Counted from the first letter of the stretch, positions 913 to 57,263 are shown. The stretch: DNA of 64,000 nt from a virus (IMGVR_UViG_3300031111_000012:2338-66337), one strand, 5' to 3'. Numbers and translations are program-made. Notes: generated from the sequence alone by a model not told the origin.

Positions 913-2529
913 TTACCCAACCAAAAGAGGTACTCGAGTATTGAGAGTTTCAGTGCCCGTTATAATTGAGCTAAACAGATCCTCGCCCTCTTTGAGGTAG
1001 TCGAGGATCTTTATCTCAACACTGTTGCCCGTAACAAAATCTACAATGAAAACCCTATCCGCCTTTTGCCCTGGGCGCTGTACCCTCTTAACACACTGCT
1101 TTCTATAGATTGGGGATACCGGGCTTTCATAAAAACCTAGGTACTTAGCCATCTGGAAGTTACCACCAACCCCCGCGGACTTCCAATGGGAAAGCAGGAC
1201 ACGTATTTTGGGGTCCTTCTTAAACTTGCGCACTGCCTCGATCTTTTGAGACTTACCTCCCTTCTTATCTACAACGCTGAAAGTTATTTTTTCTTTGGTA
1301 AGCCGCTCGCGCAGCATGTTGCGGGATTCGTCAAGCTCAAAAAATACCAGCATCTTTTCATCTTCTGGTAGCTCGTGAAGGAATTCAACCAGAGCATCTA
1401 ACTTAGGTACGCTAGAAAACCTTATGGCAGACCTACCTGTAGGCGTCTTAGCGTAAAGAAACCCGGAGCATACCTGGCGCAGCTTGATAAAGCTTGCCTC
1501 TACCTCAGTATCCTCTAGGGACTTACCTCGTGCAATCTCCTGTAGAGTTTTATTTGCAGGTTTGTAGTAGCTATACGCTTCCTTAGTGAAAGGCACCACG
1601 ATGCGCTTTTCTACTATTGGCGGTAGGTCTGAACACTCCCAATCCTCGTATCTGAGGCTACGGTTGCCCAAAATCCTGAATAGGTCATCCTCCATCCGCC
1701 GATCAAACTTATAATCGTTCCACCCACCCCACGCTACTTTCTTATTGAAAAACACATTCCGAAACATGGAGTAAGAACCCAAGGTATCCCCATGGTCAAC
1801 GAAGTGGAACTGGGACCATAGATCAGCAGGGTTCCTACCAAATGGGGTACCCGTACCGCCGTACCTTACTTTTATCTTGGAGGATAGCGCCATGCATGAC
1901 TGGTAATGAAGGCTTTCCCAATTCCTAATCTCGTGGGTTTCATCAGCAAGTAAACAATCAACGTACTGCAACATGGTACCTGCAAGCTTCGACGATACCT
2001 GCATCCTGTTTTTCTGTGACTTGTGATCGGTTACGAGATTGCAGAGCATGTGCATAAGGCCCGGATAGGTAACACCAACGATGCACTGCTCCGGGGAACT
2101 ATCAAGCAGATCCCACTTCTGCTCAGTTGAACCCACAAGAGGAATAAAGGGATAATGGCTATGAACCCTTGCATCATCTTCCCAACCTTCTAGGTTTATA
2201 TCACTAGGTACTATGGCTAGGGCTCTTCGGGAACAATCCTCAGTAACAAGGTTGAAGTGATACCAATCAAGATAGATTTTGGTTTTACCGGTACCCATAT
2301 CGAGGGACATAAAAAAGTTGCCCTCGAGGGCGCCAGCCACAAAAGTAGCTAGTTGGTGCAACCAGGGTTTTGTTTTCCAGTCAATAGCTTCTTTGCCAAA
2401 ACCTTGATCTGTAATCACGTCCCTAAGCGTGCGCATAAGCGCGGGCCTACGCCACGTCTTGAGGGTGCGCCAATCCTTAAGCTCCCTTTCATCCAAGTAA
2501 TAACGAATACCAGCGGCAGAGACTCCCAT
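913..2529 (-). CDS. SNF2/SF2-family helicase
   Basis: DMGTGKT Walker A, ADETH (DExH), GTGTP motif III, C-terminal SAGVGGNFQ and RVQRPGQ motifs. Confidence 0.9.
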   Translation of the reverse strand: MGVSAAGIRYYLDERELKDWRTLKTWRRPALMRTLRDVITDQGFGKEAIDWKTKPWLHQLATFVAGALEGNFFMSLDMGTGKTKIYLDWYHFNLVTEDCSRRALAIVPSDINLEGWEDDARVHSHYPFIPLVGSTEQKWDLLDSSPEQCIVGVTYPGLMHMLCNLVTDHKSQKNRMQVSSKLAGTMLQYVDCLLADETHEIRNWESLHYQSCMALSSKIKVRYGGTGTPFGRNPADLWSQFHFVDHGDTLGSYSMFRNVFFNKKVAWGGWNDYKFDRRMEDDLFRILGNRSLRYEDWECSDLPPIVEKRIVVPFTKEAYSYYKPANKTLQEIARGKSLEDTEVEASFIKLRQVCSGFLYAKTPTGRSAIRFSSVPKLDALVEFLHELPEDEKMLVFFELDESRNMLRERLTKEKITFSVVDKKGGKSQKIEAVRKFKKDPKIRVLLSHWKSAGVGGNFQMAKYLGFYESPVSPIYRKQCVKRVQRPGQKADRVFIVDFVTGNSVEIKILDYLKEGEDLFSSIITGTETLNTRVPLLVG

Positions 2530-3941
2530 TAGCTGCCCTCCGAGGATTCAGTGCTATCCCCTAGGGCTGCCCAGTACTTAGAGGTCATCAAGCGGGAGCC
2601 CACACAAAACTGACCCATCTGATAGGCCTGGCTGATCATAAGCGTATTACCTACTTCATCGTTACGGTGCTTAGCGATGAATAACCTAGCGATGCCCATC
2701 CTACGCTCCGCAGCTGTTTGGTTATAACTGAGGATCATGTCCGAGGTCGCTGCTTTCGAGTAATCCTCCCCCAGGTGCTGCAACGTGATTACTTTGGCTA
2801 CCTCCCCTGATCTGTTTGACTGAGATGCGGTAACCATTGAGGTGTCCCGCTCTACACCCAGCCCCCGTAGGTCCTTGTATATCTGACCTATATCCGTACG
2901 CAGCCTAGAGGAGTCCACCTTCATGAGATCCGCATAGTCTACCAAAATTATGTCGGGAACGAAGCCCTCGGAGCGCTCGAGGCGATCGATGTAGGCATGC
3001 AGCCCTGATATGGTTAACTGACCTGTAGGAAACTGCTTAATAACAAGCTGGAACCTACCATGGATGCTATTTACTTTTTCTGCAAGTAACTTATTGATCC
3101 CTGGGTCCGCCAATGAAGGGCGCACTAAGTCCACTTCACCGAAGCCTGCAAAGGCCCCGTCAAGCTCCTCAAGCAGCGTATACCTAACATCTGGGTCACG
3201 CTTGGCAATTGAAAAAAGCGCTTGGGTATATCGTTGGGCACAACGTTGCTCCGACATCTCAAGCGTTACATGCAAAACTCGCTTGCGATTAAGTAATGCG
3301 TACTTGCCGATATGAATAAGTGCCCAAGACTTGCCGCGGTTAGGTGGTGCTAGGATCGTTAGCAACTCCTTCCTAACTGGCCCGAACTCTATCTTCTTGA
3401 GGTAGTCAATACCCATAGGAATAACATCTATAGGTTTGGTAGTTGCTGTTACGAACTGCCCTGGATTTCTATGCAGCATCAAACCAGGGGTAAACGCTGC
3501 GAGGTCCTTTGTTCTAAGGACCTCCGTTAATGCATTCTCCGCCTCATCCGCAGCACCTTCCTGCAGGTCCCTTGCTGCATCAGTAATGGCCCGCTTTAAC
3601 CTCTGCTCCCTTACAAAGCCACGAAGCCTTGAGAGCACGAACTCAATGTTTATCGTGTCCCTGAGGAAGTACAGGTTGTCAATTACCTGCCCGTAGAGTT
3701 CCGACTTCTTCTCATCCCTACCCTCTAGCACATCCGCAAAGAGATCAGGCAAGTGCTCCTTGGGAGTCTCCCGGTATTGGTCGTAGTAGCTGATGCACTT
3801 GTCCGCAACTTCCCTATAGATTTCGGAACTGAAAAGATCCGCATCTACTGACTCAACGATTATTGAGGCAGCGCTGTCGTGGAATGCCAAGCACGCAAGT
3901 AGGTTTTCCTGGTGCGCGCTTGAAAGCCTATCGTTTTTCAT
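2529..3941 (-). CDS. Replicative DnaB-like helicase
   Basis: APPNRGKS Walker A, VTLEMS, LVDYADLM, TASQSNR motifs; stop overlaps next start. Confidence 0.9.
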   Translation of the reverse strand: MKNDRLSSAHQENLLACLAFHDSAASIIVESVDADLFSSEIYREVADKCISYYDQYRETPKEHLPDLFADVLEGRDEKKSELYGQVIDNLYFLRDTINIEFVLSRLRGFVREQRLKRAITDAARDLQEGAADEAENALTEVLRTKDLAAFTPGLMLHRNPGQFVTATTKPIDVIPMGIDYLKKIEFGPVRKELLTILAPPNRGKSWALIHIGKYALLNRKRVLHVTLEMSEQRCAQRYTQALFSIAKRDPDVRYTLLEELDGAFAGFGEVDLVRPSLADPGINKLLAEKVNSIHGRFQLVIKQFPTGQLTISGLHAYIDRLERSEGFVPDIILVDYADLMKVDSSRLRTDIGQIYKDLRGLGVERDTSMVTASQSNRSGEVAKVITLQHLGEDYSKAATSDMILSYNQTAAERRMGIARLFIAKHRNDEVGNTLMISQAYQMGQFCVGSRLMTSKYWAALGDSTESSEGS

Positions 3942-3945
3942 ACTG

Positions 3946-4833
3946 TCAGTGACTCCGCATGATACCTATTGCAGCCTCAAGCATTGGGTTAAGCTCGATG
4001 CCAAACTTATTTAGAAATACGCCTACCTTTCTAGTTAATACGCCGCGCTTAGGCAGCTCAGGTATCCTTAACTTATCGGTACCAGCTATGAAGTGCACAG
4101 GGGGTGGGAGTGCAGCTAAGGGCAGGTTGAATTCAACCAGGTCCCAGTTATCAAGTATCTTCTGTCCGCGCTTTGACTTGAGGCATGCAGCGGTATCAGT
4201 TATGTACTGAATTGCAGTCTTCTCCCCTACCCCATCGATACCCTTTAACCCGTTGTGCCCTCCTGTTATTGCTTGAACAAGAGGCCATTGACTTGGGTCA
4301 AGGTCCTGGTAATCTCTTTTGAAGGTGGCAATGGTATAGGGCTTTCTCGTACCCCTGGGACCTCCTCCTTTCATCATGTACACCTTGTCGTTAAGCAGAG
4401 AGTACAAGTCAGAATCGTTAGCTCCTATTGCAACCTCCTCAAACTCGTGCTGGTGATTGAGCGCTAGTAGTGCCGCAATGTCGTCAGCCTCAAGTCCCGG
4501 GATGCCAAGGTAGCGAATACCTGCAATATCCATAAACTCAGCGCCGGCCTTTTTACCGATGGCGATTGAGGCCCCCAACCACTCATCCATAGGCTCCTTT
4601 GATCGTGATTCCTTGTACTGTGGATATACCAAGGACCGTGCATAGGGTTTGGTATCCAAGCAGACAACAGTGACTCGCGGCTTAACTTGCACCACGAGGT
4701 TTGCAAGCTGCATAAGGAACCCGTACAGGGCTCCCGTGGGTTTGTTGTTATGAGATAGCAGCTTGTTAACGTGGGCAGCTTTGTGCAGTAAGCTGCTGAA
4801 GTCAACCAGCAATAGGGTCCTGTTGGTAATCAT
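3946..4833 (-). CDS. 5'-3' exonuclease / flap endonuclease (PolI 5' nuclease, T5 D15-like)
   Basis: LLLVD, YPQYKESR, GLEADD, NDSDL and H3TH GIDGVGEKTA motifs. Confidence 0.9.
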   Translation of the reverse strand: MITNRTLLLVDFSSLLHKAAHVNKLLSHNNKPTGALYGFLMQLANLVVQVKPRVTVVCLDTKPYARSLVYPQYKESRSKEPMDEWLGASIAIGKKAGAEFMDIAGIRYLGIPGLEADDIAALLALNHQHEFEEVAIGANDSDLYSLLNDKVYMMKGGGPRGTRKPYTIATFKRDYQDLDPSQWPLVQAITGGHNGLKGIDGVGEKTAIQYITDTAACLKSKRGQKILDNWDLVEFNLPLAALPPPVHFIAGTDKLRIPELPKRGVLTRKVGVFLNKFGIELNPMLEAAIGIMRSH

Positions 4834-6064: not shown

Positions 6065-6101
6065 AGGTTTCTCACATCAAACCCTTACGGGTTATCAATG
6101 A

Positions 6102-7328
6102 TTACTTGCGGCTCCGAGTGGAGCGACCGCGGCCACGGCTGGCCGGCTTGGCGGCTGCCTTCTTGGCAACCTTCTTGCGGGTGCTGGCACCGCGGGCCGA
6201 GCGCCCACGGCTGGCCGGCTTGGCTTCGGACTTCTTGGCCTTCTCGGCAACGGCTTCGGCAACGGCGTCGGCGAAGTTCTTCAACGTGTCGAACAGTTCC
6301 TTGCCCAGGTCGGCGTCGTCGATCTCCTTGGCCGCCTTGGCCTTGGTGGCACCGTCGAGGATTGCAGCGGAAACCAGCTCAACATCACCAATGGACAGGC
6401 CGGGGGCTTCCGGCTCCTCGCCTTCTTCTTCGCCCTCGCCTTCTTCCTCGCCTTCTTCGGCCGGCAGCAGGAAGCATTCATCGATGTCCTTGTGGGAAAG
6501 CTTCACTTCTTCCTCGCTTTCCGGCAGGAACAGGACAACAGCACGGGAGGTGCAGTCGACGACCTCACCCTCGTACTCGTCCTCACCGACCACGATCAGG
6601 GCGCCGTCGCCCTCTTGCAGTTCCTTGGATTCGACCGGCTCCAGGTCGTCCTCGCCTTCTTCCTCGGAGCCACCGTCACCGGCGACCAGGGTAACCGCCT
6701 TGATACGGGTGAACTTCATGCTGACGCGCTTGCCGGAATTGTCATCGCGAACCGAAAAGCCATCATCACGCACGTCCTCGACTTCGCCTTCGACCGGCTC
6801 ACCGCGCATACGTTCGACCACCACGCGGTCACCCTTCTGGACTTCTTCCGGATCGACTTCGGAGCCGTCCTCGCCTTCGCCCTCGCCTTCTTCTTCACCC
6901 TCGTCGCCCTCGCCTTCTTCTTCGCCCTCGCCTTCTTCCTCGCCTTCTTCGGGCGCGGCACCGGTGACCAGCTCATCGATGGAAGGAACATCTTCCAGGG
7001 CCTCGTCGTTGATAGCGTCGGCGGCGCGGTTGTACCAGTCCTGAATTTCCGGGGCCAGCGCTTCCCACTCGTCGTCGGACAGGCCGGCAACCGACTTGCA
7101 CAAGCGGCGGATGAACTTCATCTCATCCTCGCGAGCGCTCTGCGGCTTCTGGCCGGTGACCTCCAGGAGCATGTCCAGGTTGGTGTCTTCCTTCTTGGCT
7201 TCCGGCTTGCTGCGGCCGCCGCGACGACCACCACGGGCCTGCGTAGCTTTGGCGGCTGCCTTCTTGCGGGTACTTGCGCCGCGGGTCGAACGAGTAGTGG
7301 TATTGGTTTTTGCAGTACGTCGTGCCAT
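6102..7328 (-). CDS. Charge-patterned protein: basic histone-H1-like termini, Glu/Gly linkers, two SH3/KOW-like repeats
   Basis: Start at MARRTAK with RBS AAAAGGAG; EEGEGE repeats; repeats EVQKGDRVVV..VEGEVEDV and ELQEGDGALI..YEGEVVDC; strongly C/G-ending codons. Confidence 0.8.
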   Translation of the reverse strand: MARRTAKTNTTTRSTRGASTRKKAAAKATQARGGRRGGRSKPEAKKEDTNLDMLLEVTGQKPQSAREDEMKFIRRLCKSVAGLSDDEWEALAPEIQDWYNRAADAINDEALEDVPSIDELVTGAAPEEGEEEGEGEEEGEGDEGEEEGEGEGEDGSEVDPEEVQKGDRVVVERMRGEPVEGEVEDVRDDGFSVRDDNSGKRVSMKFTRIKAVTLVAGDGGSEEEGEDDLEPVESKELQEGDGALIVVGEDEYEGEVVDCTSRAVVLFLPESEEEVKLSHKDIDECFLLPAEEGEEEGEGEEEGEEPEAPGLSIGDVELVSAAILDGATKAKAAKEIDDADLGKELFDTLKNFADAVAEAVAEKAKKSEAKPASRGRSARGASTRKKVAKKAAAKPASRGRGRSTRSRK

Positions 7329-7459
7329 GATTGCACTCCTTTTTGATTGAATAAATAACACGTGTTATCCGAAGTTAGGATTTCCTTCCTTCAGAGAATA
7401 GATACGCCTACCTTGGCAAAAAGATCCTTCCTACAGGACCCTTCAACAATCCTCCTTGA

Positions 7460-7987: not shown

Positions 7988-8555
7988 CTTTAAGTCCTCT
8001 TAAGTAATCCCTGGTACGCTCCGCAACCCCCTCAGTAACATCGAGGGCCTCCATAAGGAACCCGTCACCATGGAGTTTCATCTTACCGCGTTCCTCCCAA
8101 GCAGTTCCTATTTGCCGGAGGACTTCAGGCTTTGTATGAATGAAAAAGGAAAGCACTGACCTAACTTGGTCATCAGGAGCCTCGTCCACAATATCCGATA
8201 AACTTTGGGAGTCCGTAACGACCACTTCAGGTACAGATACAGCGGTGTCTTCATCTGAGGCTAAGCTACTTTCGTAAACCAAGGATCGGCGGTGCTTATG
8301 CTTCCTAGCCAGGTTAGTAATGTGATTCTGCAATGCGGACTTGAAAAGCCCCATGAAGTGCTTTTGAGATGTGACGGTAGCCCGATAGGTATTCCGAACC
8401 CTCGCAAACACCAAGTAGGCCTCCTGCAATGCTTCCTCTAGGTCCTGGTACTCGTGCTTGATCCTCCAAAATTGGGAGCTAAGCAAATTTACTGCATAAC
8501 CCTTGATCGGACCTTCCCAAAGTATCAGAACAACTCGCTTCTTCTTACTACCCAT
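7980..8555 (-). CDS. Sigma-factor-like protein (sigma70 region 2-like)
   Basis: DLEEALQEAYLVF...FMGLFKSALQNHITNLARKH resembles ECF sigma region 2; region 4 not evident. Confidence 0.55.
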   Translation of the reverse strand: MGSKKKRVVLILWEGPIKGYAVNLLSSQFWRIKHEYQDLEEALQEAYLVFARVRNTYRATVTSQKHFMGLFKSALQNHITNLARKHKHRRSLVYESSLASDEDTAVSVPEVVVTDSQSLSDIVDEAPDDQVRSVLSFFIHTKPEVLRQIGTAWEERGKMKLHGDGFLMEALDVTEGVAERTRDYLRGLKDE

Positions 8556-8566: not shown

Positions 8567-8971
8567 TTACTGCCTACGTTTCCGTATCGGTAGCTTGGAC
8601 CCTTTGAGCTTTACCCTCTTAGGTTTCGACCCTGAGGAAGCATCCCCTGCTTTAAGCTGTACCCGCTTCCTCCCAGTGGAGTCCTTGAGAGGTACCCGCT
8701 TCTTACTGTTACCAAAAGGAACCCTACGAACCTTTCCCAATGCGCGATCGGAAAAGGTGCGGCCAGACACGCGACTGATCCGCTTTCCTTGCACCCACGA
8801 ATAAGGCCAAAGTTGTTTAGACCCATCCGCTGACCAGGCCCCTACAACGTTTTTTGAGCCTACGTCATATAGCTGTACGGAACCATAGGGACCCGCCTCA
8901 ATCACTCCGAGGCATTTGCAACCCCCGAAGTGACCTTTCATTTTGTCAACTGCAAACTGTTCAGTTGCCAT
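8567..8971 (-). CDS. Hypothetical protein with basic C-terminal tail carrying four RVxL/F motifs
   Basis: RBS GAGGAGG; tail RRVPF..KRVPLK..KRVQLK..KRVKLK. Confidence 0.75.
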   Translation of the reverse strand: MATEQFAVDKMKGHFGGCKCLGVIEAGPYGSVQLYDVGSKNVVGAWSADGSKQLWPYSWVQGKRISRVSGRTFSDRALGKVRRVPFGNSKKRVPLKDSTGRKRVQLKAGDASSGSKPKRVKLKGSKLPIRKRRQ

Positions 8972-9001: not shown

Positions 9002-10333
9002 TTAAACGATAATCCTGCCCTGCGCCTTCAGGTTGCGTACTTGCATGAGGAGCGAATCCAAAGCATCCCATGCCTCGTTTTCCTGATGGCGCCCCAAACC
9101 CCCACGCCGGAAGTTATTGTAGGTACTCGCGATACTGCTAAGCACCTGGCGGGCCTTCTTCTCACTGATAGCACCACCCTCAGTAATGGACTTGTTGAGC
9201 TTCACCCGCTTGGTACCGCTGCGCTGCTTAGCAACACTGCTAACCCGGCGGATGGGCAGCTTCCCATCTGCACTTGCTTGGGGTTCCGGATTGAGTTGCA
9301 GCGCAAGCCGGGCATCCTGCTCTGAGTGCTTGCCCTTGCATCCCTTCATAAGCTCCGGCAAGTCGGACAGCTGTACCTGGCCCTGGGCTACGGCCTCCGA
9401 AACCTTCGGGCTCGCAGCCATAAGCAGCAGCAACTCACGCGCCCTGGCTTGGGTGAGTCCAAGGTAGCCCGCTGCTTCCTTGAGTGGCATACCAGCGCTC
9501 TCTACTGAAGTGTGGAGGATGTGCGCAAGCTCCGCGGGGTGGTGGTGCTTGGCAGCAGCACGATAGGAAACGAGCCGCTGAATGTAGGCCGCTACCTCCA
9601 CGGGAAGCGGTTGGGGCTCACCATCAACATAGGGGCGTGTATCAACCCATGCCACCAGCGCAGGCACCCAGGGGTCCTTGGGAATCTTGCCAGCAGCCTT
9701 ACTTGCGGCACCATGCAAAGCGCGAAGGGTCCGCATGCCGTCGTACACATGCAGCGCCTCGACCCCCTTGGTCACCCGTGCCACGACAACGATCGGCTGC
9801 ATTACGCGCTGGAACTCTTCCCAGTTTTCCAACAGGAACCGCTCGTAGCTTTTCATGTCCCCCATATCGAAGCGCGGGTGCTCCGCTGCCGGTACGATAT
9901 CGCTCAAGTGAGCATGCAGCACCTTCTCCCCATGCTTTTCCTGCTTGAGGAGTGAAAGCTTCACTGAGCCCGTAGGGGAAAGCAGCACACCCGCACCGAG
10001 GTTCGACTGCTTTTTAGCCGGAGCCTTTTTGGTGGCCGCTTTCTTCTTGGCCGCTTTCTTTGCGACCTTCTTGGAGGTCTTGGCCGGCGCGGCAGTTGCC
10101 TTCCCCGAAAGGAGGTCGTCGATCAGGATTGAGGCAGTGTCCGCTCCGGAAGCAGCGACCTCCCCTAGCAGCCGTTGAGCCTCCCCGATTGCCGCCTTCA
10201 ATGCGTCCTTGTCTTTGCCGTCAACATTGGGCACCGCGCGGATAACAGCACCGCGCACCATGTTGTAACCAGCAATGCCCTTAGTTTCCAGTACCGTTTT
10301 AACTGTCGGTACCACAGTCTCTTTTTTAGACAT
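9002..10333 (-). CDS. ParB/Srx-like domain protein with Lys/Ala-rich region
   Basis: HPRFD...MQPIVVV...VYDGMRTLRAL resembles the ParB N-terminal domain; followed by an HTH-like LKEAAGYLGLT. Confidence 0.65.
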   Translation of the reverse strand: MSKKETVVPTVKTVLETKGIAGYNMVRGAVIRAVPNVDGKDKDALKAAIGEAQRLLGEVAASGADTASILIDDLLSGKATAAPAKTSKKVAKKAAKKKAATKKAPAKKQSNLGAGVLLSPTGSVKLSLLKQEKHGEKVLHAHLSDIVPAAEHPRFDMGDMKSYERFLLENWEEFQRVMQPIVVVARVTKGVEALHVYDGMRTLRALHGAASKAAGKIPKDPWVPALVAWVDTRPYVDGEPQPLPVEVAAYIQRLVSYRAAAKHHHPAELAHILHTSVESAGMPLKEAAGYLGLTQARARELLLLMAASPKVSEAVAQGQVQLSDLPELMKGCKGKHSEQDARLALQLNPEPQASADGKLPIRRVSSVAKQRSGTKRVKLNKSITEGGAISEKKARQVLSSIASTYNNFRRGGLGRHQENEAWDALDSLLMQVRNLKAQGRIIV

Positions 10334-10979
10334 TCGATGTCTCCTTGAATTGATACAGGATCTCCTGCACTTTGCTTAATGGAATTACGGCAGCGTGTTC
10401 CCTAACCTTCACTACCTTTGGGTTATTCATGCGGTCGCGCTCCGTTGATACAACCACGGTGCGGAATGCCTTGAGATAGAAGTCTCGCTGCGGGTTACTA
10501 GCGCCTCCAATTACCCACATCTGATAAGTAATGGTCTCCTGTTCACTCAGATGCTCTACCTCTTCGTGAACCTTCTTTAACCCGGAGTCCCTCTTCCCTG
10601 TCACTACTACTTTAGCGTTTGGGGATTCTGCAAGCCCTACATCCTCTAGGGGTACTCGCCAGCCGGATTCGTTGCCAACGTCACAGGTCCTGATCCCGCT
10701 ATGGGTGCTAAAGGTCCAGAAGTAAAGCTCACCGATCTCCTCATCCCTGAACTCTACGTCGAAGGTATGCTTACCCAAGCGCAGTACCCTCCCTATGCGC
10801 CACTTTTTGCGGCGTAGCGAACCAAAGCCCTGTGCGATTACGTAACACTCCTTAGGTAGCGTTGTAGGGCTTCCTAAGATAGGCAGGCGCCTTTTACTTA
10901 GCCGCTTTCGTGGGCTCTTCGGTTGCTGCTTCATTTTCAGCCTCCTTATTAATTTGTACCGTGGCATCGATCCGCTCAA
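10326..10979 (-). CDS. Hypothetical protein (true start probably downstream of 10979)
   Basis: Long ORF in the operon chain; stop overlaps next start. Confidence 0.6.
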   Translation of the reverse strand: MSGSMPRYKLIRRLKMKQQPKSPRKRLSKRRLPILGSPTTLPKECYVIAQGFGSLRRKKWRIGRVLRLGKHTFDVEFRDEEIGELYFWTFSTHSGIRTCDVGNESGWRVPLEDVGLAESPNAKVVVTGKRDSGLKKVHEEVEHLSEQETITYQMWVIGGASNPQRDFYLKAFRTVVVSTERDRMNNPKVVKVREHAAVIPLSKVQEILYQFKETSNV

Positions 10980-41388: not shown

Positions 41389-41958
41389 CTACCCGACGGA
41401 TTCAGCAAAGGCCACTGCAGCAATGCGCGCCTGATCCTTTGAGCGGATAACGAACTCCCCATGTCGTTTATTGGGAACGTGCTCCTTGAGGGTTGAGTAG
41501 AATCGGGGACTTCCCCAGCCTACGAAGAACTCCCTGATGTTGCTACCAATCAGGTCTACCCACAGCCTCAGGTAGGGGAACAAGCCGAAGTTGTCCACTG
41601 TAGGGATGAAGTCCTCCTGGTACACGCGGTCCCCAATGGCAAAGGAACAGGCTGCCCTGTGACTCCAACCGAAGTAGGCTTGGTGCTTCTCTGACCAGCC
41701 AACAGTGCAAACAGTATCCTCACTGGTTGCTACTTCAGGGGCAATGCCATTACCGCGCAACCACTTGATCGTTGAAGCCCAATGGTTTCCTGCGATGTAG
41801 TAACCTTCACGATTGAAGTATCCATCGAGCGAGTAGAAGGAGGCATCCTTGTTATCCAACCCAAGATAGTCATCAGATGGCTGATAGGTATACTTGAAGA
41901 TACCCAGGTGGTTGTCCACAGCCCTGCAGCTTAGGACCCGAACGGAATCGATGTGCAT
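41389..41958 (-). CDS. Hypothetical phage protein
   Basis: VGWSEKHQAYFGWSHRA..F.IGD motif. Confidence 0.7.
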   Translation of the reverse strand: MHIDSVRVLSCRAVDNHLGIFKYTYQPSDDYLGLDNKDASFYSLDGYFNREGYYIAGNHWASTIKWLRGNGIAPEVATSEDTVCTVGWSEKHQAYFGWSHRAACSFAIGDRVYQEDFIPTVDNFGLFPYLRLWVDLIGSNIREFFVGWGSPRFYSTLKEHVPNKRHGEFVIRSKDQARIAAVAFAESVG

Positions 41959-42392
41959 TTTTCCAATCCTCCAAACTTGGTTAAGGTTGTTGTTGGGTTT
42001 GATACATCGATCACTGGTATGCCCATCCTTACGCAGTACTTCTTTGCGTCCGTAGTTCCTTTGCCTCCTTTAAAAGCAATGCACAGATCAGGGCGTGCGT
42101 GTACCATGCGCCTGTTACGCACTGCACCGGAACCCTTGCCCGCAGCGCTGTCCCAGTCAGCGTCGAAGGTAACGAAGGGGATACCATTCCGCTTTGCCCA
42201 CTCCCTTGCAAAGGTATCAACACCTCGGGCTCCTCCCTCGTACAGCACCTTAATTGGGAAAGCGCTTAGTGCATCATCCAAACGATAGGAAACCTCATGG
42301 TAATCCCTGCAGTTCCTACCACCAGTGACCATCACGGAAAAAGCCAGAGGCACCCGCCTCCGGCTTCTATCTTTCAGTTTGACCCTGCGCAT
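41931..42392 (-). CDS. SLOG-superfamily (DUF2493/YspA-like) protein with basic N-terminal tag
   Basis: VTGGR, EGGARGVD..A, ADW...GAVRNRRM, AFKGGKGT; start at MRRVKLK avoids overlap with the upstream gene. Confidence 0.8.
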   Translation of the reverse strand: MRRVKLKDRSRRRVPLAFSVMVTGGRNCRDYHEVSYRLDDALSAFPIKVLYEGGARGVDTFAREWAKRNGIPFVTFDADWDSAAGKGSGAVRNRRMVHARPDLCIAFKGGKGTTDAKKYCVRMGIPVIDVSNPTTTLTKFGGLEKCTSIPFGS

Positions 42393-42396
42393 AGGA

Positions 42397-42717
42397 TCAG
42401 TCGCCGGCGTCCTCGGTGAAGGTAGCCTCCTCCTCGAGGGTACCTTCGTCCTCACTGAACGGCTCCTCAGGGAAGAGCTTCTGTACCTGGCGCACCAGGA
42501 TATGCAGGCTCCCGAGGTAAGGCTGATTGAGGCTTACTTCGTGAACCTCCTGCTCATTGGCCTCCAGCTGTTCATAGGTACCAGGCACCGTGAAGGCCTT
42601 TGGGCTTACCCAGTAGCGCTCCTGGGTACGCTCGAACTGTACCAGTGCTCGATCCGGTTCCTTGATGATCAGGCGGATATCCACCAACACACCCAAGGGA
42701 TAATTCGTTTCACCCAT
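42397..42717 (-). CDS. Hypothetical protein
   Basis: RBS AAGGAG; acidic C-terminus. Confidence 0.65.
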   Translation of the reverse strand: MGETNYPLGVLVDIRLIIKEPDRALVQFERTQERYWVSPKAFTVPGTYEQLEANEQEVHEVSLNQPYLGSLHILVRQVQKLFPEEPFSEDEGTLEEEATFTEDAGD

Positions 42718-45635: not shown

Positions 45636-46250
45636 TTATAGGAATGCATCATCCGGAGCGTAATCTTCTGAGTTCTTATGACGATCCTCTGCAAACTCCT
45701 TGCCCCAGGTATCCCTGTCTCTCCGCTCTAGCACCTGGAAGTCCCTGCGCCAGTAATCGTTACCAGGTGCATTGAGTCCAGTGTTCCTTGTTCTAAGGAA
45801 TGCAGCAGCTGCCCTCCTACAGGCCACCATGAACCTGTAGTAGGATTCCTCGAGCTGGGTTTGTTTGGAGTTCCAGTCAACCCGACCTTCCTCCATCGCT
45901 TCCTCAAAAGCAAGGCCGCGCTTCACCCAATGGTTGTAGGTTCGCTTACTCAATCCTGCAAGGTCGCACACTACACTGGGTGGGTTTCCCTCTGCAAGCA
46001 GATCAACGAAATAGTCCTCCATTGCATCAACAAGTGAAGGCAGACCTCCCTGGTTGCTTGTGCCGGGTGCCTGTTTGCATTGAAGGATTAACTCTGGGTA
46101 CCTGCCTTCCTCTATATGCTCCACTCCTATGTGCTCTACAGAGGCGCGTAAAGGTACCCGCTTTGTAGGTTTGCTGCCTTGTTTGGTATTGCGCCCCCTT
46201 CTACGGGTGGGCTTCCTTGTTGGGATTTGCTTATTGCTCCGCATATGCAT
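45636..46250 (-). CDS. Terminase small subunit
   Basis: LLAEGN...VCDLAGLSKRTYNHW..RG HTH, Y.RF...RRA.A, W......LERR....WG typical of TerS. Confidence 0.75.
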   Translation of the reverse strand: MHMRSNKQIPTRKPTRRRGRNTKQGSKPTKRVPLRASVEHIGVEHIEEGRYPELILQCKQAPGTSNQGGLPSLVDAMEDYFVDLLAEGNPPSVVCDLAGLSKRTYNHWVKRGLAFEEAMEEGRVDWNSKQTQLEESYYRFMVACRRAAAAFLRTRNTGLNAPGNDYWRRDFQVLERRDRDTWGKEFAEDRHKNSEDYAPDDAFL

Positions 46251-48852: not shown

Positions 48853-48854
48853 CC

Positions 48855-49142: not shown

Positions 49143-49178
49143 CTAAATCTCCTTCGCGCGCCTGCGCATGAATAAACC

Positions 49179-49214
49179 TTAGCCTCTATACCCTAAAGGG
49201 TATATAGAGGCTAA
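49179..49214. promoter_or_regulatory. Intergenic palindrome with CCCTAAAGGG core (copy 2)
   Basis: ttagcctctata-ccctaaaggg-ta-tatagaggctaa. Confidence 0.55.
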
Positions 49215-49228
49215 ATAAGGTAGGTTTG

Positions 49229-49717: not shown

Positions 49718-49763
49718 TTTTAGCAGCTCCCAGCAATCTACCCTTCTAATTCAGCTTGAAACC

Positions 49764-50138
49764 TTAGCGGACCCGCTGCCTCCGCTTGCCTCCGCTGCGT
49801 TCACGCTTTTTGCTTGCGCTGGTAGCGCGGGGCTTAAGAGGAACGCGCCTGCGCGCTGCGGTCTTTTTCTCGGTGCGCGGGCTTACGCTAACAGGAAGTG
49901 GATTATCCACGTTTATGGAATCGGGCAGGATACCCAGGGCCTCCATCAGGGCAACCAAGTGCTCAACCTGGATCATGGTGGCAACAGGAGACCAAAAGAT
50001 GCGGCCATCGCTTTCCTTCAATTCGGGAGTAAGGATTGAGTTGTAGGAATCCCCCATACCGCGCAGGCCAGCCCCTACCCAAATACTGGTTGCAATTTCA
50101 CGCAGCGCTTCGATATCGATGTTTTCGTCACTCTTCAC
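49764..50138 (-). CDS. Hypothetical protein with basic C-tail (RRRVPLK)
   Basis: GTG start after AGGAG. Confidence 0.65.
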   Translation of the reverse strand: MKSDENIDIEALREIATSIWVGAGLRGMGDSYNSILTPELKESDGRIFWSPVATMIQVEHLVALMEALGILPDSINVDNPLPVSVSPRTEKKTAARRRVPLKPRATSASKKRERSGGKRRQRVR

Positions 50139-50535
50139 GATCGGTCTCCTTGAAAATGTTCCTCGGTATGGGCTCGTTTGGATCAACCAAACCCATAAGT
50201 ATTCGTAACTGGTTGAACATAGAATCGGAGGCCATAACCGCACGGGAAAACCTTACAACTCGGAATTTGAGTTTCATCAGTTCCGAAAAGGCCTCTTGGT
50301 GAACCTCCAGGGTAGCGAACTTCTTACCGCAGGTGAGGCACTCGCGACTCCTCCTTATTCCGGATCCTAGGGCATTGTTGCGCTTTCGGAAGCGGGTGGA
50401 TACAACTCTGCTTCTGCCGCTACTGCAATGCGGGCAAGACATGCTGCCGCTTGCCTCTGCATCCTCCGCCAGGGCACGCTTTACTTCCGCGGTAAGTGGA
50501 AAGCCTAGCGCGGGCTTTTTAGCTGGTGGTTTCAT
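50128..50535 (-). CDS. NrdR-like zinc-ribbon protein (no ATP-cone)
   Basis: MSCPHC...SRVVSTR...IRRSRECLTCGKKFATLE matches the NrdR N-terminal zinc finger. Confidence 0.75.
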   Translation of the reverse strand: MKPPAKKPALGFPLTAEVKRALAEDAEASGSMSCPHCSSGRSRVVSTRFRKRNNALGSGIRRSRECLTCGKKFATLEVHQEAFSELMKLKFRVVRFSRAVMASDSMFNQLRILMGLVDPNEPIPRNIFKETDREE

Positions 50536-50954
50536 TTTAGTTTTACTCTCCTGGTAGGCAGTTTTGTTGATCCCTTACTCCTCCGGGATTTCAGGGGCTT
50601 ACTTTTGCTGAGGCTTAAGTCCCTCTCCTCCCCATCAACAACCAGACGGTGGTCGTTGGAGTAGTCCTCCTGATAGGTGTGGTGTCCAAGCCCAGCAGCC
50701 CTGGTATACAGGCCGTAGTTTTGTTGCGTGAGCATAAGCAGCAGGTACGCAACATCATAGGGGATTTCAAAGGTACCCTTGCCTCGGATTGAAACTGCGT
50801 TGGAACCCTTCGGATCAACCAAGGCAGCTACCTGAACCTCAACGTCCGAGGCTAGGCAATCCTCGTAGTGCTCCTTTGATTCAAGGTGACCTTCTAAGCC
50901 CTCAAACAGGTCCCTGTTATCCCCAGGGGCTAGTAAGCGTGTACGTTTAGCCAT
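50532..50954 (-). CDS. Hypothetical protein with basic C-tail (KLPTRRVKLK)
   Basis: Coupled ORF after sbcC. Confidence 0.65.
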   Translation of the reverse strand: MAKRTRLLAPGDNRDLFEGLEGHLESKEHYEDCLASDVEVQVAALVDPKGSNAVSIRGKGTFEIPYDVAYLLLMLTQQNYGLYTRAAGLGHHTYQEDYSNDHRLVVDGEERDLSLSKSKPLKSRRSKGSTKLPTRRVKLK

Positions 50955-50957
50955 AGT

Positions 50958-52766: not shown

Positions 52767-53881
52767 TTCTTAGAAGCCTTCAGTATTTCAGCACCCACTT
52801 CAGTGCATAGCTCAGTGAGTTGGGCCTTATCCGCAAAAACCCTAAGGGCTTGCTCAGCACTCCGATAACTACTGCCTAGTGCCTCTGCGGCCCCTAGTAA
52901 GTCTTCATCATCCTCGGCAGCCTCCAGTAAAGGCACCCTAACAATGCTTCTCTCCTTAACTCCGCCGTGCACAAGGAACCCGTGATCGTCACAGGCCTTC
53001 AGAATCAACGAACGGGCTATGCGCCAATCCTCGGGGTCCTTTGAGCTACCCGAAAGTTCCACGCTAACATGGTCACCTTCAGTAAGGTCCCAACGATCGA
53101 CAAGATCCTCGAAGGTTTCTATGTATCTTGTTAGCGGCAGTTTAAGGCTTGCGCGCTTTACTGTTGTAGGAAGCGTAAAAGTATTCCACGTAACCTCACC
53201 TCTATCCTTGGTTACGAGTAGAAACCGCCCCTCGTACACATCACCAAAATGCACCCCGTACGGAGTTCCTATATAAGTAATAGGACCTAGCTGTTGAGGT
53301 ACATGAATGTCCCCACTAAAGCATACCGCATTGAGATTTCGGAACATCTTGAAACTACTACCTGGAAGTTTCGATCCATTGCTAGCCTTAGCTCCGTTGA
53401 AGGTTTCGTGCATGATAATCACGTCACTATCCTTCAGGTACTGGAAGTTAATATCCTCCCGCTGCTGCATAGGCTCGTAGGAGTGGGGGATAAGATAGGT
53501 GAGGAAACCAGAAAGCAACTGTGTCCTAGGTCTTGTTACTACCTCAACCCCTAGATGCCGTAAAAAACCGAAGAAGGGGTACTGAGGATCGTTAAGGTGG
53601 TCATGGTTACCAACAACCCATACTAACTCACATTTGCAGCGGTCCCTTAGAAGGGTTGCAAGAGTCATAAAGGAATCCGCTACCCTTTTAACGAATCTCG
53701 CCTTATGGTCACTCTTCTTATCCGTTATGTCCCCCGCCACTACAACGGCCAGTATAGGCGTGCTTGTTTTCACGGAACCAACCACAGCGGACAGTACCCA
53801 CTCAAACACCTGCCACCTATACTCGTGCTCCGGATTGTCTGTAAGGTGCCAGTCTGTAGTAAGTAGGATCTGAGCGCTCAC
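52763..53881 (-). CDS. SbcD/Mre11-like nuclease (T4 gp47-like)
   Basis: TDWH, AGDI.D, GNHD, MHE, GDIH metallophosphoesterase motifs. Confidence 0.92.
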   Translation of the reverse strand: MSAQILLTTDWHLTDNPEHEYRWQVFEWVLSAVVGSVKTSTPILAVVVAGDITDKKSDHKARFVKRVADSFMTLATLLRDRCKCELVWVVGNHDHLNDPQYPFFGFLRHLGVEVVTRPRTQLLSGFLTYLIPHSYEPMQQREDINFQYLKDSDVIIMHETFNGAKASNGSKLPGSSFKMFRNLNAVCFSGDIHVPQQLGPITYIGTPYGVHFGDVYEGRFLLVTKDRGEVTWNTFTLPTTVKRASLKLPLTRYIETFEDLVDRWDLTEGDHVSVELSGSSKDPEDWRIARSLILKACDDHGFLVHGGVKERSIVRVPLLEAAEDDEDLLGAAEALGSSYRSAEQALRVFADKAQLTELCTEVGAEILKASKK

Positions 53882-54390
53882 TTCAGATGCCTCCGTTGCA
53901 GGACAGAGGTATCTCCCGAGTAGGTTTCCATTGCATAGGCTGCAAGCAAACAGGCATCCGCAAGGTTATGCGCCTTACTCTTGGCAATCCTTCCCCAATC
54001 AACTTCAGGGTACCTTTGACTTGCAAGCACCACCGACTTGTCCTTGCCCTTTCGGTTACTCAACCCGAAGTGGGCTTGCCATGCCTTTGGTTGGATGAGT
54101 CGAAAAGGAATCCGCCGCATCTCAAGAAAGGTTTTCGTCGCGTAGAAGGCTCCCCCAAAGGTAAAGGCAGCCTGCCTACCTTTCACTGCACCTGAGTTAA
54201 CCTCCTCAAGCCCTGCAATGAGAATAGGGCCGTGGGTCTGCGCCATAACCCTAAGTGCCGGGATGTAAACCTCACCCCGTGCCGAGTGCATTACCGGCAT
54301 AAAGCTATAAAAGGTTACCCTTCCGGTTTTCCCATCAATAACCACGATTGCACCAGAGATGCCTGGATCAATCCCCCATATTGTAGGCAT
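53878..54390 (-). CDS. RuvC-like Holliday junction resolvase
   Basis: GIDPGISGA, LEEV, P.AWQ, ADACLLA. Confidence 0.85.
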   Translation of the reverse strand: MPTIWGIDPGISGAIVVIDGKTGRVTFYSFMPVMHSARGEVYIPALRVMAQTHGPILIAGLEEVNSGAVKGRQAAFTFGGAFYATKTFLEMRRIPFRLIQPKAWQAHFGLSNRKGKDKSVVLASQRYPEVDWGRIAKSKAHNLADACLLAAYAMETYSGDTSVLQRRHLK

Positions 54391-55499
54391 CAGTACTTAC
54401 TCCTCGTTGGTAGGAACTTGGACTCCGTGGTCTCGTAAAGCTCGATCACGTACTTGCGTGCCAGTTTCATACGCTCCGGGTCCTCAAGCAGCTTGTTAAT
54501 ATGCACTGCAGTGAACTTGGAAGGAACCCCGATATCCTCAAGGGCATCCTTTGCCTTGATTGACTCGAGGTAGGCAACGCAGGCTTCTGCATCCTCCATC
54601 CCATAACCGAAGACGATCGGATACTGACACTCCCGGAAAGGTAGCCCTACCTTGTTTTTATCGTTGCGGGCTCTTATATCAACACCGACAACTCGGGCAA
54701 CTCCCCCTATCGTTTTCTTGCGCTTTTTCACCTCGGCCAGGACCATAACGAGGGATGCATAGAAGTCCAAGGCCTTACCACCACTGCGGGTCCACTTCTT
54801 ACCGAACACCGCGCCTATCTTGTCCCTGATTTGGGAAATGATGATAAGGGTGACGTATCCTGCCTTTATCTTGCGGACAAGCTTGCGAAACATCTCAGAC
54901 ATCATTTTGGCCTTCTCCTGACCATAGGTAGCCTCGCCGAAGTCCCTCTTTATCTCTGCCTCGGAGGAAAGGGAGTCCAGGCTGTCCACGATAACGAGAC
55001 GCTCCACCTTGTCCTCAGCCCCTCGGTCGGCGAGAGCTTCAATAAGGCCCGCCATAGCTTCCACGCTTTGGATGTCTTCGTGAAAGTGAATCTTACTTAC
55101 CGGTATCCCCAGGGCCTCCGCGTAGTCCTTATCGAACGCGGATTCCGCTTCGATATAGTGAGGCTCACCTTCGGGATAGGTAATGAGGAAGTTTACTACA
55201 GCCTCCATTGCCTGCAGTGTCTTGCCTGAGGACCTGTCCCCAATGATGTTGGTAACGCGATGCAGCGGATACCCGCCACCCATGGTGCAGTCCAAGGGGG
55301 TACAGCCCGATGGTATGAACTGTACCCCCTTCTTAATGGCAGAGGCAAAGTAGAGGGATTTCAGTGCTCCCTCAACTCCCTTTGCCGGTTTGTCTTGGGC
55401 CCCCTTGATAGGTCTCCGAACTACCTTCTTGTTGGTAGTTTTCTTTCGTGAAGGGCCGGAGGCCTTGGCGCCTGTGCGCTTTAATGGCTTTCTTTGCAT
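54390..55499 (-). CDS. recA: RecA-family recombinase with basic N-terminal extension
   Basis: GDRSSGKT, IVDSL, ISQIRDKIG, SGGKALDFYAS, KNKVGLPFRE. Confidence 0.93.
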   Translation of the reverse strand: MQRKPLKRTGAKASGPSRKKTTNKKVVRRPIKGAQDKPAKGVEGALKSLYFASAIKKGVQFIPSGCTPLDCTMGGGYPLHRVTNIIGDRSSGKTLQAMEAVVNFLITYPEGEPHYIEAESAFDKDYAEALGIPVSKIHFHEDIQSVEAMAGLIEALADRGAEDKVERLVIVDSLDSLSSEAEIKRDFGEATYGQEKAKMMSEMFRKLVRKIKAGYVTLIIISQIRDKIGAVFGKKWTRSGGKALDFYASLVMVLAEVKKRKKTIGGVARVVGVDIRARNDKNKVGLPFRECQYPIVFGYGMEDAEACVAYLESIKAKDALEDIGVPSKFTAVHINKLLEDPERMKLARKYVIELYETTESKFLPTRSKY

Positions 55500-55567
55500 G
55501 CTGATAGTGCTCCAGTAAAAAGAGGGCGTCCTTGCCCTAACAGCGCATACCCAAATTTGCGCAGGCC

Positions 55568-56695
55568 TTAACGGCGGCTACGACGGGAACGCTTCGGTGC
55601 GGGCTTTTCAATGCCCAGCTCGGCAGCGATGTCTTCCGCCAACTCCTGCTCCTCACCCTCGGGGTAGTCATCCGGATCGATGTCGATGCCCTCGTCGTTG
55701 ATCACTTCGCAAAGCGAGTCGAAGTCCTCCTCCGCCATGACCATCAACTCATCCCAAGTGAGGCCGTCGCCTTCCTCGGCTTCCTCTTCCTCAGCTTCCT
55801 CTTCCTCACGACCACGGCCACGATGCCGGCCCCGGGTACCATGGTAGTCGTCATCCTTCTTGGACTTCTTCGATCCACGATGACCGCCGGCGAAGGCTTC
55901 CTCGATCAGGTCGGAGTCGATTTCGGCAAGCAGCTCAGGCAGCGGATTTTCAACGACAACCTCAAGCCAGTCGTCTGCGTTCCTGCCCAGCTCGCTGGAA
56001 TGGCGACTGATCTTCAGGCCCTCGTAGCGGGTGCGTTGGCCTTTGCCGGTTTTGGTGAACTCAACGTCGTATCCGTTTTCGGGATCATCGATGTTGAGCA
56101 CCTCGCCAGTGCGCCTATCCACCATCTGAGCGGCCAGCTCCTTATCGATGGAGCGGTAGGGGGATGCCCAAAGCTTCGGACCTTCCTTCTCGTTGTCCCG
56201 GTCGATAACCCAATAGAGCACGCGGTGAGCCGGATTCAACTCACGTGCCAGGTCCTCATCCCCATCTGCGGCGGCCTCGTCGGCAGCGTCGCACACGGCG
56301 CAAGGCTCCCCTTTCATCCTCTTGGGACACAAGTAGGCTCCCTCCTCAGGACCTACACCGTAGTGCACGTAAGCATCGAGGCCGAAGTGTTCCGCGTCAT
56401 CCCAGGTAGGCGGCAGAATGCGGATAAGGTTATCCCCGTCCGCAGGGGTGAACCTCGGATGGTCCCCTACCAGAAAAGAAGGGCCCCGGTTACCATCGGC
56501 CTGCTGGCGACGGCTCACGTCATCAGCACTGCGCGGACGGTAAGTAAAGTTACCACCACCGCGACTGGAACGACCACCACGCTCACGAGAGGAACCACGG
56601 GATTCGCTACGATCCCTGCTACGGCTGCTACCGCGATCCGAGGAGCCCCGTGGGGCACGAGTGCCGCGTGACTCTGTACGGTTTTTTCTACGCAT
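55568..56695 (-). CDS. Single-stranded DNA-binding protein (gp32-like) with RS/RG-rich N-tail
   Basis: IRILPP, CP...EPCAVC, IDDPENGYD.EF.K.G...TRY; acidic C-region; strong codon bias. Confidence 0.8.
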   Translation of the reverse strand: MRRKNRTESRGTRAPRGSSDRGSSRSRDRSESRGSSRERGGRSSRGGGNFTYRPRSADDVSRRQQADGNRGPSFLVGDHPRFTPADGDNLIRILPPTWDDAEHFGLDAYVHYGVGPEEGAYLCPKRMKGEPCAVCDAADEAAADGDEDLARELNPAHRVLYWVIDRDNEKEGPKLWASPYRSIDKELAAQMVDRRTGEVLNIDDPENGYDVEFTKTGKGQRTRYEGLKISRHSSELGRNADDWLEVVVENPLPELLAEIDSDLIEEAFAGGHRGSKKSKKDDDYHGTRGRHRGRGREEEEAEEEEAEEGDGLTWDELMVMAEEDFDSLCEVINDEGIDIDPDDYPEGEEQELAEDIAAELGIEKPAPKRSRRSRR

Positions 56696-56711
56696 GATTA
56701 CTTACTCCTTA

Positions 56712-57263
56712 TCATCTATGGGTTTTACTGCGCTTGATACTCTTATGCCTTAGCGGCTTTCGAGTTGATGTTGCCTTCTTCCTGCTGGCAAGTGTGCCCG
56801 CTTCACTGCGGACATCTGTAGATACCGAAGGATTGCTCCCAAAGTATTCAGAAACATAAAGACGGGCGAGGTGGCCCAGCATTCTTGATCGTGTTTCGTA
56901 GGCCTCTTTGAGTGAGGCTATACGCGCCACCATACTCTTTTTATCTTGCAGGCGCGCGCGTAGCTTCACAACTTCAGGGTCCGTCATAACCTCTGACTTC
57001 ACCTTCCCCTCGGTGTAGGAAATACCCTCATCGTCGTACTCCTTGCGGATATCAAGGCCTACTTCTGACTCCAAGCGGTCAAGCTCATCCTTAAGCATGT
57101 CCCTTTCATCCTGAAAGGATACCAAGGCATCCGCCACCACGCCGAACAACCAGGGCTGACGCATCAACTCTGTATCGAGGTCTAGCGGATCAATTTCCAG
57201 CAAGGCCTTAAGCTCACTGAAAGTGTAATCGGAGCCCACAAGCTCCTCGTTCTTATCACGCAT
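56712..57263 (-). CDS. UvsY-like recombination mediator (coiled coil)
   Basis: LEID..DLD.EL..QP, YTEGKVKSEV..DP helical protein next to SSB and RecA. Confidence 0.5.
   Translation of the reverse strand: MRDKNEELVGSDYTFSELKALLEIDPLDLDTELMRQPWLFGVVADALVSFQDERDMLKDELDRLESEVGLDIRKEYDDEGISYTEGKVKSEVMTDPEVVKLRARLQDKKSMVARIASLKEAYETRSRMLGHLARLYVSEYFGSNPSVSTDVRSEAGTLASRKKATSTRKPLRHKSIKRSKTHR

Follow-up and report, generated by a model that had tools for sequence, protein, structure and literature searches.

A short basic motif recurring on the tails of unrelated siphovirus proteins, a candidate docking peptide

Why does one short basic peptide recur on the tails of otherwise unrelated proteins of a single phage? 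The question is raised by a stretch of 64,000 nucleotides (the window), bases 2338-66337 of the single 66,337-bp virus record IMGVR_UViG_3300031111_000012, in which all long open reading frames (ORFs) lie on the minus strand. A prediction made from the sequence of this window (the original prediction) described the peptide as [KR][KR]V[PKQ]L and proposed that it recruits its carriers to one hub or marks them for packaging or proteolysis. The analysis reported here indicates that the hexapeptide [KR]-R-V-[PKQR]-L-[KR] is a short linear motif, portable between proteins and maintained by selection. A docking function is the reading that we tentatively favour, and a hyper-acidic protein encoded at 6102..7361 is a candidate partner.

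A peptide recurring on unrelated proteins

Seven proteins hold full copies of the motif. Those located by the original prediction were all recovered at their places on the minus strand, and primase was added as a further carrier from the whole genome (aa, amino acids):

8567..8971, minus: 134-aa protein without a family; RRVPF (8714-8728), KRVPLK (8684-8701), KRVQLK (8651-8668), KRVKLK (8603-8620) and the companion KLPIR (8582-8596), all on the minus strand in its C-terminal tail
9002..10333, minus: ParB-like protein; KLPIRRV (9242-9262) and KRVKLN (9194-9211) in the linker after ParB_N and HTH_ParB
41931..42455, minus: SLOG (YspA-type) protein; RRVKLK (42372-42389) and RRVPL (42345-42359) in the tail ahead of the domain
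45636..46250, minus: small terminase subunit (TerS); KRVPLR (46146-46163) in a 40-aa basic N-terminal tail before the helix-turn-helix (HTH)
49764..50243, minus: small protein without a family; RRVPLK (49833-49850) in a basic C-terminal tail
50532..50954, minus: 140-aa protein without a family; KLPTR (50550-50564) and RRVKLK (50535-50552) form the extreme C-terminus and are followed by the stop codon
1..920, minus: primase (374 aa in the whole genome), the seventh carrier; its tail, ...QRRVRLLRV, lies ~200 bases to the left of window position 1

The frequency of the motif is not explained by composition. The 86 minus-strand ORFs of the window (20,046 aa) were shuffled 300 times each globally, in 20-aa blocks and in 10-aa blocks. 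[KR][KR]V[PKQ]L occurs nine times in six proteins, compared with shuffle means of 0.30, 0.16 and 0.28, respectively, and a count of nine was reached by 0 of 300 shuffles of each kind. With a trailing [KRN], eight copies stand against 0.03-0.07 expected, and RVPL is present in seven proteins against 0.35-0.42. The companion KLP[IT]R, also part of the original description, has three copies against 0.02-0.04 expected. In the whole genome (94 ORFs, 21,197 aa, 500 shuffles), the form [KR]RV[PKQR][LF] has 11 copies in seven proteins against 0.31 expected and a shuffle maximum of three; in six-frame translation it gives 11 matches on the coding strand and one on the opposite strand. Since the motif had been defined post hoc from the data, an unbiased screen was made in which every 4-mer was ranked by the number of distinct proteins holding it, with 100 block-shuffled proteomes as control. 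RVPL was the top-ranked 4-mer of the proteome (seven proteins, -log10 p 6.9), while the best 4-mer of the shuffled proteomes averaged 4.79 and peaked at 5.93. An expectation-maximization motif finder run on the protein tails over-fitted and was uninformative, with RVPL-like models fifth among the real runs.

These results bear directly on the view that the motif has no specific function and is a by-product of composition, of copied tail segments or of a DNA-level signal. This view can point to the post hoc definition, to the K/R-rich tails and to the over-representation of GGTACC in the whole genome (50 sites against 17 expected from base composition), but it is opposed by the block shuffles and the 4-mer screen, and by the codons. 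Across the motif copies, Arg is encoded by AGA, CGC, CGG and AGG, Leu by CTA, CTT, TTA, CTG and CTC, and Val by all four of its codons. Because codons vary among the copies in this way, selection acts on the motif at the peptide level, not at the DNA level. A DNA-level repeat as the source of the motif is ruled out by the same variation and by GGTACC itself, of whose 47 genic sites 29 are in the GGT-ACC frame (Gly-Thr), and which underlies only two of the 11 motif copies. No extended DNA motif was found around the 11 sites, and a back-translated triple-motif DNA pattern retrieved 18 loci from IMG/VR, all of them tandem DNA repeats. In addition, the motif turns up again in TerS lineages that are independent of each other and in a homologue of the four-copy carrier with 26% identity, both described below. 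Absence of function is therefore largely refuted, and we consider it highly improbable.

The peptide has the sequence properties of a short linear motif (3-10 residues, few fixed positions, a disordered region, independent origin in unrelated proteins): R, V and L are fixed within six residues, and the seven carriers are unrelated, several of them bearing it on add-on tails. Its flanks consist of K/R/S/T/G/P/Q/N/D/E to 63-88%, against 56% proteome-wide. As predicted, copies lie mostly on terminal or linker extensions, in tails or inserts rich in K/R/S/T, and the carriers are mostly DNA-transaction proteins. TerS was assigned through PHROG 4102 (1.2e-12) and has the HTH, the ILERRDR..WG block and the PD[DE]xFL C-terminus of this type. 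The SLOG protein matches Pfam YAcAr (3.2e-18) over residues 41-102, and both of its motif copies precede this domain; its start is ambiguous between GTG 42455, with a GAGGAG Shine-Dalgarno sequence, and ATG 42392, without one. Residues 115-345 of the ParB-like protein resemble ParB_N/HTH_ParB clusters (feature score 0.96, TM 0.65 by query); the protein has no Pfam match at E<=0.01, and its PDB search was empty. The 134-aa protein has no Pfam or PHROG family and, like the 140-aa protein, finds only itself among 5.8 billion proteins. The N-terminus of the 140-aa protein, MAKRTRLL, is a look-alike of the motif. For the 49764..50243 protein, too, no Pfam or PHROG family was found. For its gene, GTG 50138, preceded by an AAGGAG Shine-Dalgarno sequence, is the probable start codon, since 50128-50535 forms an ORF of its own. 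This ORF encodes 135 aa, has an NrdR-like zinc ribbon (by eye, from two Cys-x-x-Cys pairs) and overlaps the 49764 gene in its longest reading.

Core and variant forms had been listed with the full motif:

925..936, minus: RVPL core in the SNF2 helicase, seven residues from the C-terminus
10647..10658, minus: RVPL core (WRVPLED) in the 10326-10979 protein, outside any basic tail
52928..52939, minus: RVPL core in SbcD, within a 12-residue insertion
55476..55493, minus: RKPLKR at the N-terminus of UvsX/RecA, in a 32-aa add-on tail, statistically weak
56748..56762, minus: RKPLR in the UvsY-like protein's C-terminal tail, statistically weak
8526..8540, minus: KRVVL (KKRVVL) at the N-terminus of a sigma-like protein, a single case

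Among the cores, the copy in SbcD lies inside an add-on insert, and that of the SNF2 helicase (C-terminus TRVPLLVG) aligns with KRIKL-KR at the C-terminus of the homologue in the related contig G002; WRVPLED may be a chance occurrence. The weaker variants turned out to be poorly supported: [KR]KPL[KR] is found twice against 0.06-0.10 expected, a count reached in 0, 3 and 1 of 300 shuffles.

Conservation in the small terminase family and in related phages

A full HMMER search with TerS returned 172 relatives, of which the best 150 were examined. Within the first 35 residues, R[VI]xL is present in 28 of these 150, compared with 3.8 in shuffles of those 35 residues (maximum 9, 300 shuffles), and the rest of the same proteins (19,523 residues) holds only 11 copies. 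By rank, the motif occurs in 17 of the best 50 homologues, nine of the next 50 and two of the last 50, and the family logo, K-R-[VI]-[RK]-L-[KNR], is the phage's own motif logo. In P0002, the sole close TerS relative (57% identical), R31, V32 and L34 are invariant while the remaining tail has diverged. Eight TerS loci were obtained from IMG/VR; the N-terminus is readable in six, three of which have RVLL, RVRL or RVKL there. The motif is a subfamily trait of the TerS N-terminal tail and is not private to this phage. Spacing between motif and HTH ranges from ~15 to 50 aa and the motif stays near the N-terminus, and such terminal anchoring with variable spacing fits a tethered motif. In TerS, presence of the motif was not associated with a lost GRP arm (Fisher p 0.53). 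The other end of the TerS family is strongly conserved, with an ILERRDR..WG block and, at the C-terminus, PD[DE]xFL, an acidic-hydrophobic tip through which TerL may be bound.

For a proteome-wide comparison, 14 related virus contigs (G001-G013 and G020) were used in full, together with the isolate Vibrio phage SSP002; the closest kin, contigs encoding P0002, P0155 and P0156, were not among the genomes compared. The replication/recombination module, which by PHROG and Pfam comprises in this phage a beta-type clamp, PolA, a clamp loader, a UvsY-like protein, a gp32-like single-stranded DNA-binding protein (SSB), a UvsX-like recombinase, RuvC, SbcD and SbcC, is syntenic in G001-G005 and G013, and the remaining contigs share mainly head genes. 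Copies of [KR]R[VI][PKQR][LI] were counted in each genome against 200 block shuffles:

This phage: 10 observed, 0.56 expected, reached by 0 of 200 shuffles
G005: 5 observed, 0.69 expected, 0 of 200
G003: 3 observed, 0.65 expected, 5 of 200
G010: 3 observed, 0.73 expected, 11 of 200 (borderline)
G001: 2 observed, 1.22 expected, 72 of 200
G020: 2 observed, 0.97 expected, 47 of 200
G002: 1 observed, 1.15 expected, 143 of 200
G004: 1 observed, 0.66 expected, 97 of 200
G006: 1 observed, 0.98 expected, 129 of 200
G012: 1 observed, 0.41 expected, 69 of 200
G007, G008, G009 and G011: 0 observed, 0.55-0.79 expected, 200 of 200
G013: 0 observed, 0.80 expected, 200 of 200
SSP002: 0 observed, 0.48 expected

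Only this phage, G005 and G003 are enriched proteome-wide; 11 of the 14 related contigs are not, and G010 is borderline. The motif is neither unique to this phage, as the TerS subfamily illustrates, nor group-wide. Of the 19 copies in the 14 contigs, 12 fall no more than 45 residues from a protein end, a zone that holds 40% of residues (binomial p 0.037).

In G005, a homologue of the four-copy 8567..8971 carrier (26% identical across 125 residues, with E 3e-8 against a small database) is encoded in the same neighbourhood, between homologues of the 10326-10979 protein and of the acidic protein. It ends ...AKRKRVQLRGSK (closing ...KRKRVQLRGSK), and its KRIRV aligns with KRVQL of the 8567..8971 protein, with the motif at aligned C-terminal positions. 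The expectation that V and L would be conserved in relatives was borne out both here and in TerS. G005 has further copies in the TerS tail (KRVRI) and at the N-termini of a 96-aa ORF (KRVQI) and of its homologue of the 10326-10979 protein (QRVKV).

The tails had also been suspected of being lineage-specific additions, and in several cases they are: the primase tail, the first 32 UvsX residues and the 12-residue SbcD insert with RVPL are all absent from the syntenic relatives G001 and G002. In this phage, 13 protein ends have a net charge of at least +7 over 30 residues. Disordered tails rich in Arg/Ser or Lys recur on SSB, UvsX and UvsY-like proteins across the group, including SSP002, even without the specific motif, and the phage's own SSB ends in a basic, not an acidic, tip.

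Candidate partners of the motif

That the motif is a docking motif is the explanation we prefer, although we hold it with somewhat less than even confidence; the barrel protein as its partner is about half as probable. The motif would first have been a feature of the disordered N-terminal tail in this small-terminase subfamily, and would have arisen again in the phage lineage on basic add-on tails or inserts of primase, the ParB-like and SLOG proteins and three small proteins, with SbcD and the SNF2 helicase perhaps also gaining it. As a docking peptide, it may work by Arg and the flanking Lys/Arg meeting an acidic surface while Val and Leu occupy a small hydrophobic groove. One shared partner would thereby tether many clients, and tandem copies could provide multivalent tethering. 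Among the hubs first proposed, only the acidic 6102 protein gained support, as a candidate whose barrel repeats co-occur with motif enrichment, and the best candidate partner would be its SH3/KOW-like beta-barrel repeat:

6102..7361, minus: hyper-acidic protein with basic ends, net charge -41, candidate hub
6462-6860 (residues 168-227 and 243-300): two small beta-barrel repeats of that protein, assigned from weak matches

The hyper-acidic family (PHROG 38529, of unknown function) is also present in G002, G003, G005 and G013, and its loci include, besides 6102-7361 of the window, L145:15187-16146, L139:1029-2510 and L035:7071-7895. Its members combine a conserved helical domain at the N-terminus with polyacidic linkers (DDDS or EEGE runs) and from none to three 60-residue repeats; net charges are -37 in G005, -64 in G002 and -92 in G003. 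The G002 gene is flanked by QueD and QueC. A scan of IMG/VR with the alignment of the acidic protein picked low-complexity acidic patterns and one locus.

When a hidden Markov model (HMM) of six repeats was run against all proteins of 15 genomes, it matched only this phage (two repeats), G005 (one) and G003 (three), which are exactly the three motif-enriched genomes. Enrichment is found in 3/3 genomes with barrels vs 0/12 without (Fisher p 0.002, all 15 scanned), and among kin with the replication module in 3/3 vs 0/4 (Fisher p 0.029). G004, which is rated 100% complete and whose TerL is 55% identical compared with 57% for each of G003 and G005, has neither barrels nor enrichment. In SSP002, the HMM gave one bias-dominated match (E 0.0037; 12.9 bits, bias 10.0). 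Matches of the repeat in Pfam are Nodulin_C (6e-8, G003 repeats) and, below cut-offs, PUA, ProQ-C-like and BPL_C; in the PDB they are the LSm domain of Edc3, a domain of HERC2, and uL24, each with E of at least 0.04, and the Atlas structure rows carry SH3-like names at TM<=0.41. Our reading of the repeat as a small SH3/KOW/Sm-like barrel is a lead only. Small barrels of the SH3, LSm and KOW types often bind short peptides, and the repeats resemble such barrels in these weak matches, but the phage peptide matches no known SH3 ligand class.

Several observations weigh against docking on the barrels. The fold was assigned from weak matches only, and the co-occurrence was spotted post hoc in three positive genomes that are all mutually related. 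G010 has three terminal motif copies and no barrel protein, and in G001 TerS carries ERVKLKR in a genome without one. The TerS-family motif occurs in many phages viewed here through TerS alone, and the genes neighbouring 14 distant metagenome TerS loci hold four copies of [KR]R[VI]xL in 31,469 aa, about as many as by chance. Finally, most carriers with a known domain (TerS, ParB-like, primase, SLOG) bind DNA or nucleotides, which is equally apt if the partner is DNA.

The last point belongs to a rival in which the motif is a nucleic-acid-binding hook, similar to an AT-hook or an N-terminal arm, that inserts Arg into the DNA groove and raises the affinity of DNA-transaction proteins for phage DNA. 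This DNA probably carries a 7-deazaguanine base, a modification that would lie in the major groove; genes for such a base are represented:

4830-5696: QueE-like gene
7460-7987: QueD-like gene
62110-63180: TGT/DpdA-like gene
63193-63924: QueC-like gene

AT-hooks consist of a G-R-P core with basic flanks, and N-terminal arms of HTH proteins are known from Hin/resolvase (the GRP arm) and from lambda cI. The likeness is that of a short basic peptide beside an HTH, sometimes in several copies: the TerS motif precedes the HTH, at the point where the nearest solved relative, Sf6 gp1, begins its own, and three or four copies in one tail recall multi-hook proteins. Looser basic tails occupy the same ends in related phages. 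Basic signals resembling a nuclear localization signal (NLS) have been found to overlap nucleotide-binding domains of prokaryotic proteins (PMC7189692). However, the GRP core, and with it the AT-hook proper, is found in no copy, Val and Leu are invariant, which electrostatic tails would not need, and block shuffles that keep local composition give just 0.16-0.31 copies. Many copies are far from a DNA-binding fold, some at extreme C-termini with none adjacent, and in TerS it is the distance to the N-terminus, not to the HTH, that is kept. SSP002 has Arg-rich tails on the same proteins and zero copies of the motif. A hook, which would be of a new kind if the partner were DNA, is the main and a serious rival, although on balance it is less likely than not.

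A further rival places the hub in the replisome; the replication and recombination proteins concerned are the following:

54390-55499: UvsX-like recombinase
55568-56695: gp32-like SSB
56712-57263: UvsY-like protein
58283-60925: PolA
60956-62113: beta-type sliding clamp, net charge -29

Shared docking peptides gather enzymes on one hub in T4 and in cellular replisomes, and few such codes are known in phages; the gp45-binding ends of T4 gp43, gp55 and gp33 are a case of such a shared hub. The motif might likewise dock on the clamp or on the acidic C-terminal region of the SSB. Both proteins are strongly acidic, and primase, SNF2, SbcD and perhaps UvsX and UvsY would be among the clients. Sliding-clamp motifs are similar in that one short peptide at the disordered termini of unrelated DNA-transaction proteins leads to one hub, whose pocket tolerates diverse peptides including the basic APIM, in which basic residues flank aliphatic ones (PMC11139829). 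The same text gives the consensus as Q-phi-x-[LM]-[FL] or Q-phi-x-[LM]-x-[FL], and APIM as [KR]-[FYW]-[LIVA]-[LIVA]-[KR] (PMC11139829). The phage sequence fits neither: it has no Gln and has Arg at an aliphatic position of the clamp consensus, and the aromatic residue of APIM is present in 0 of 11 copies. In addition, the polymerase lacks the motif. The clamp has lost some support as the hub, because the polymerase bears a different conserved terminal motif, MGFF. This PolA N-terminus is kept in SSP002 (MGFFHT; 48786-51440), resembles that of G001 (TTGFFT) and may be the polymerase's true clamp-binding end. Every relative with the replication module has a clamp and an acidic SSB, and most are without motif enrichment. 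In the case of the SSB, T4 gp32 recruits partner proteins to DNA, and in gp32 and bacterial SSB (there the C-terminal tip) a single acidic, disordered element recruits many replication and recombination proteins (PMC11551737). There, however, the motif is on the hub and the pockets are on the clients, whereas the phage motif is on the clients. We judge a clamp or SSB hub to be quite unlikely.

Marking for proteolysis or packaging, the other role first envisaged, would make the motif a tag for an AAA+ unfoldase/protease, for processing or for capsid loading. Many copies are indeed at extreme termini (the C-termini RRVKLK and RRVRLLRV; MKRVRL-type N-termini in TerS relatives), and ClpX uses terminal tags that are basic plus aliphatic. 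Nevertheless, internal and tandem copies (the ParB linker; three or four per tail) are ill-suited to a terminal degron, TerS is not part of the virion in the systems known, and no prohead protease was recognised among the head genes, so that such a tag seems very unlikely.

Other known signals resemble the motif in part. The classical monopartite NLS has the core K-[KR]-x-[KR], which binds importin-alpha. KRVK is present in two of the 11 copies (KRVKLK of 8567-8971 and KRVKLN of the ParB-like protein), the RRVK/RRVR copies have Arg in place of the initial Lys, and the core's last basic residue is missing where P or Q stands. Bacteria have no importin, and a bacterial host is indicated by the siphovirus tail module with its J-like fibre. 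KRVKL coincides with the core of the c-Myc NLS, PAAKRVKLD (PMC7069228), but half of the phage copies have P or Q at a position that this NLS requires to be basic. DNA-bound (terminal) proteins of phages are known to contain functional NLS-like signals (PMC3609834). In our case the resemblance is most likely convergent. Two further signals were considered and rejected. The docking motif RVxF of protein phosphatase 1 is [KR]-x(0,1)-[VI]-{P}-[FW], and 10 of the 11 copies end in Leu, the sole Phe copy having Pro at the barred position. The twin-arginine signal is an N-terminal [ST]-R-R-x-F-L-K followed by a hydrophobic stretch; many of the phage copies stand at C-termini or in tandem, and such a stretch does not follow.

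Were the motif a docking peptide for the barrels, it could serve as an address code for a replication-and-packaging compartment in this siphophage group, in which scaffold barrels capture KRVxLK tags on primase, terminase, ParB, SLOG and small accessory proteins and the numbers of tags and barrels set valency, as in eukaryotic scaffold-client condensates. We regard this extension as rather unlikely. A barrel partner would nonetheless represent a new, genetically simple scaffold-client system in a bacterial virus and would explain the basic floppy tails on many phage DNA enzymes. The motif itself can be read directly from sequence, is a conserved N-terminal feature of a widespread small-terminase subfamily and is present on at least six further proteins in one lineage. 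In line with the original prediction, no description of it for phages or terminases was found in the literature, to the extent that the texts were accessible.

Gene content of the phage

The remaining genes are those of a siphovirus. PHROG and Pfam identify a structural module (TerL, portal, head morphogenesis protein, scaffold, major head protein, tape measure and J-like tail fibre) and, outside the replication module, a primase, DnaB, the SNF2 helicase, an exonuclease, the small terminase and the SLOG protein. There is no close isolated phage, the portal being at most 33% identical to those of Vibrio and Dinoroseobacter phages. Neither megablast of 20 kb of the genome nor tblastn of TerS gave a match among isolated phages. 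Scans of IMG/VR with single proteins (the 134-aa protein, TerS, portal and P0002) found no close relatives, nor did a scan of JGI metagenomes with TerS and P0002.

Directly downstream of the SLOG gene, at 41389-41958, lies a Tad6-type Thoeris inhibitor (Pfam PF25188, 6e-27), and the two genes could form a small counter-defence pair. In the related contig G001, TerL (G001:C1:9844-12687) is a single frame of 947-952 aa in which the match to the phage TerL is split in two, which suggests an intein-like insertion.

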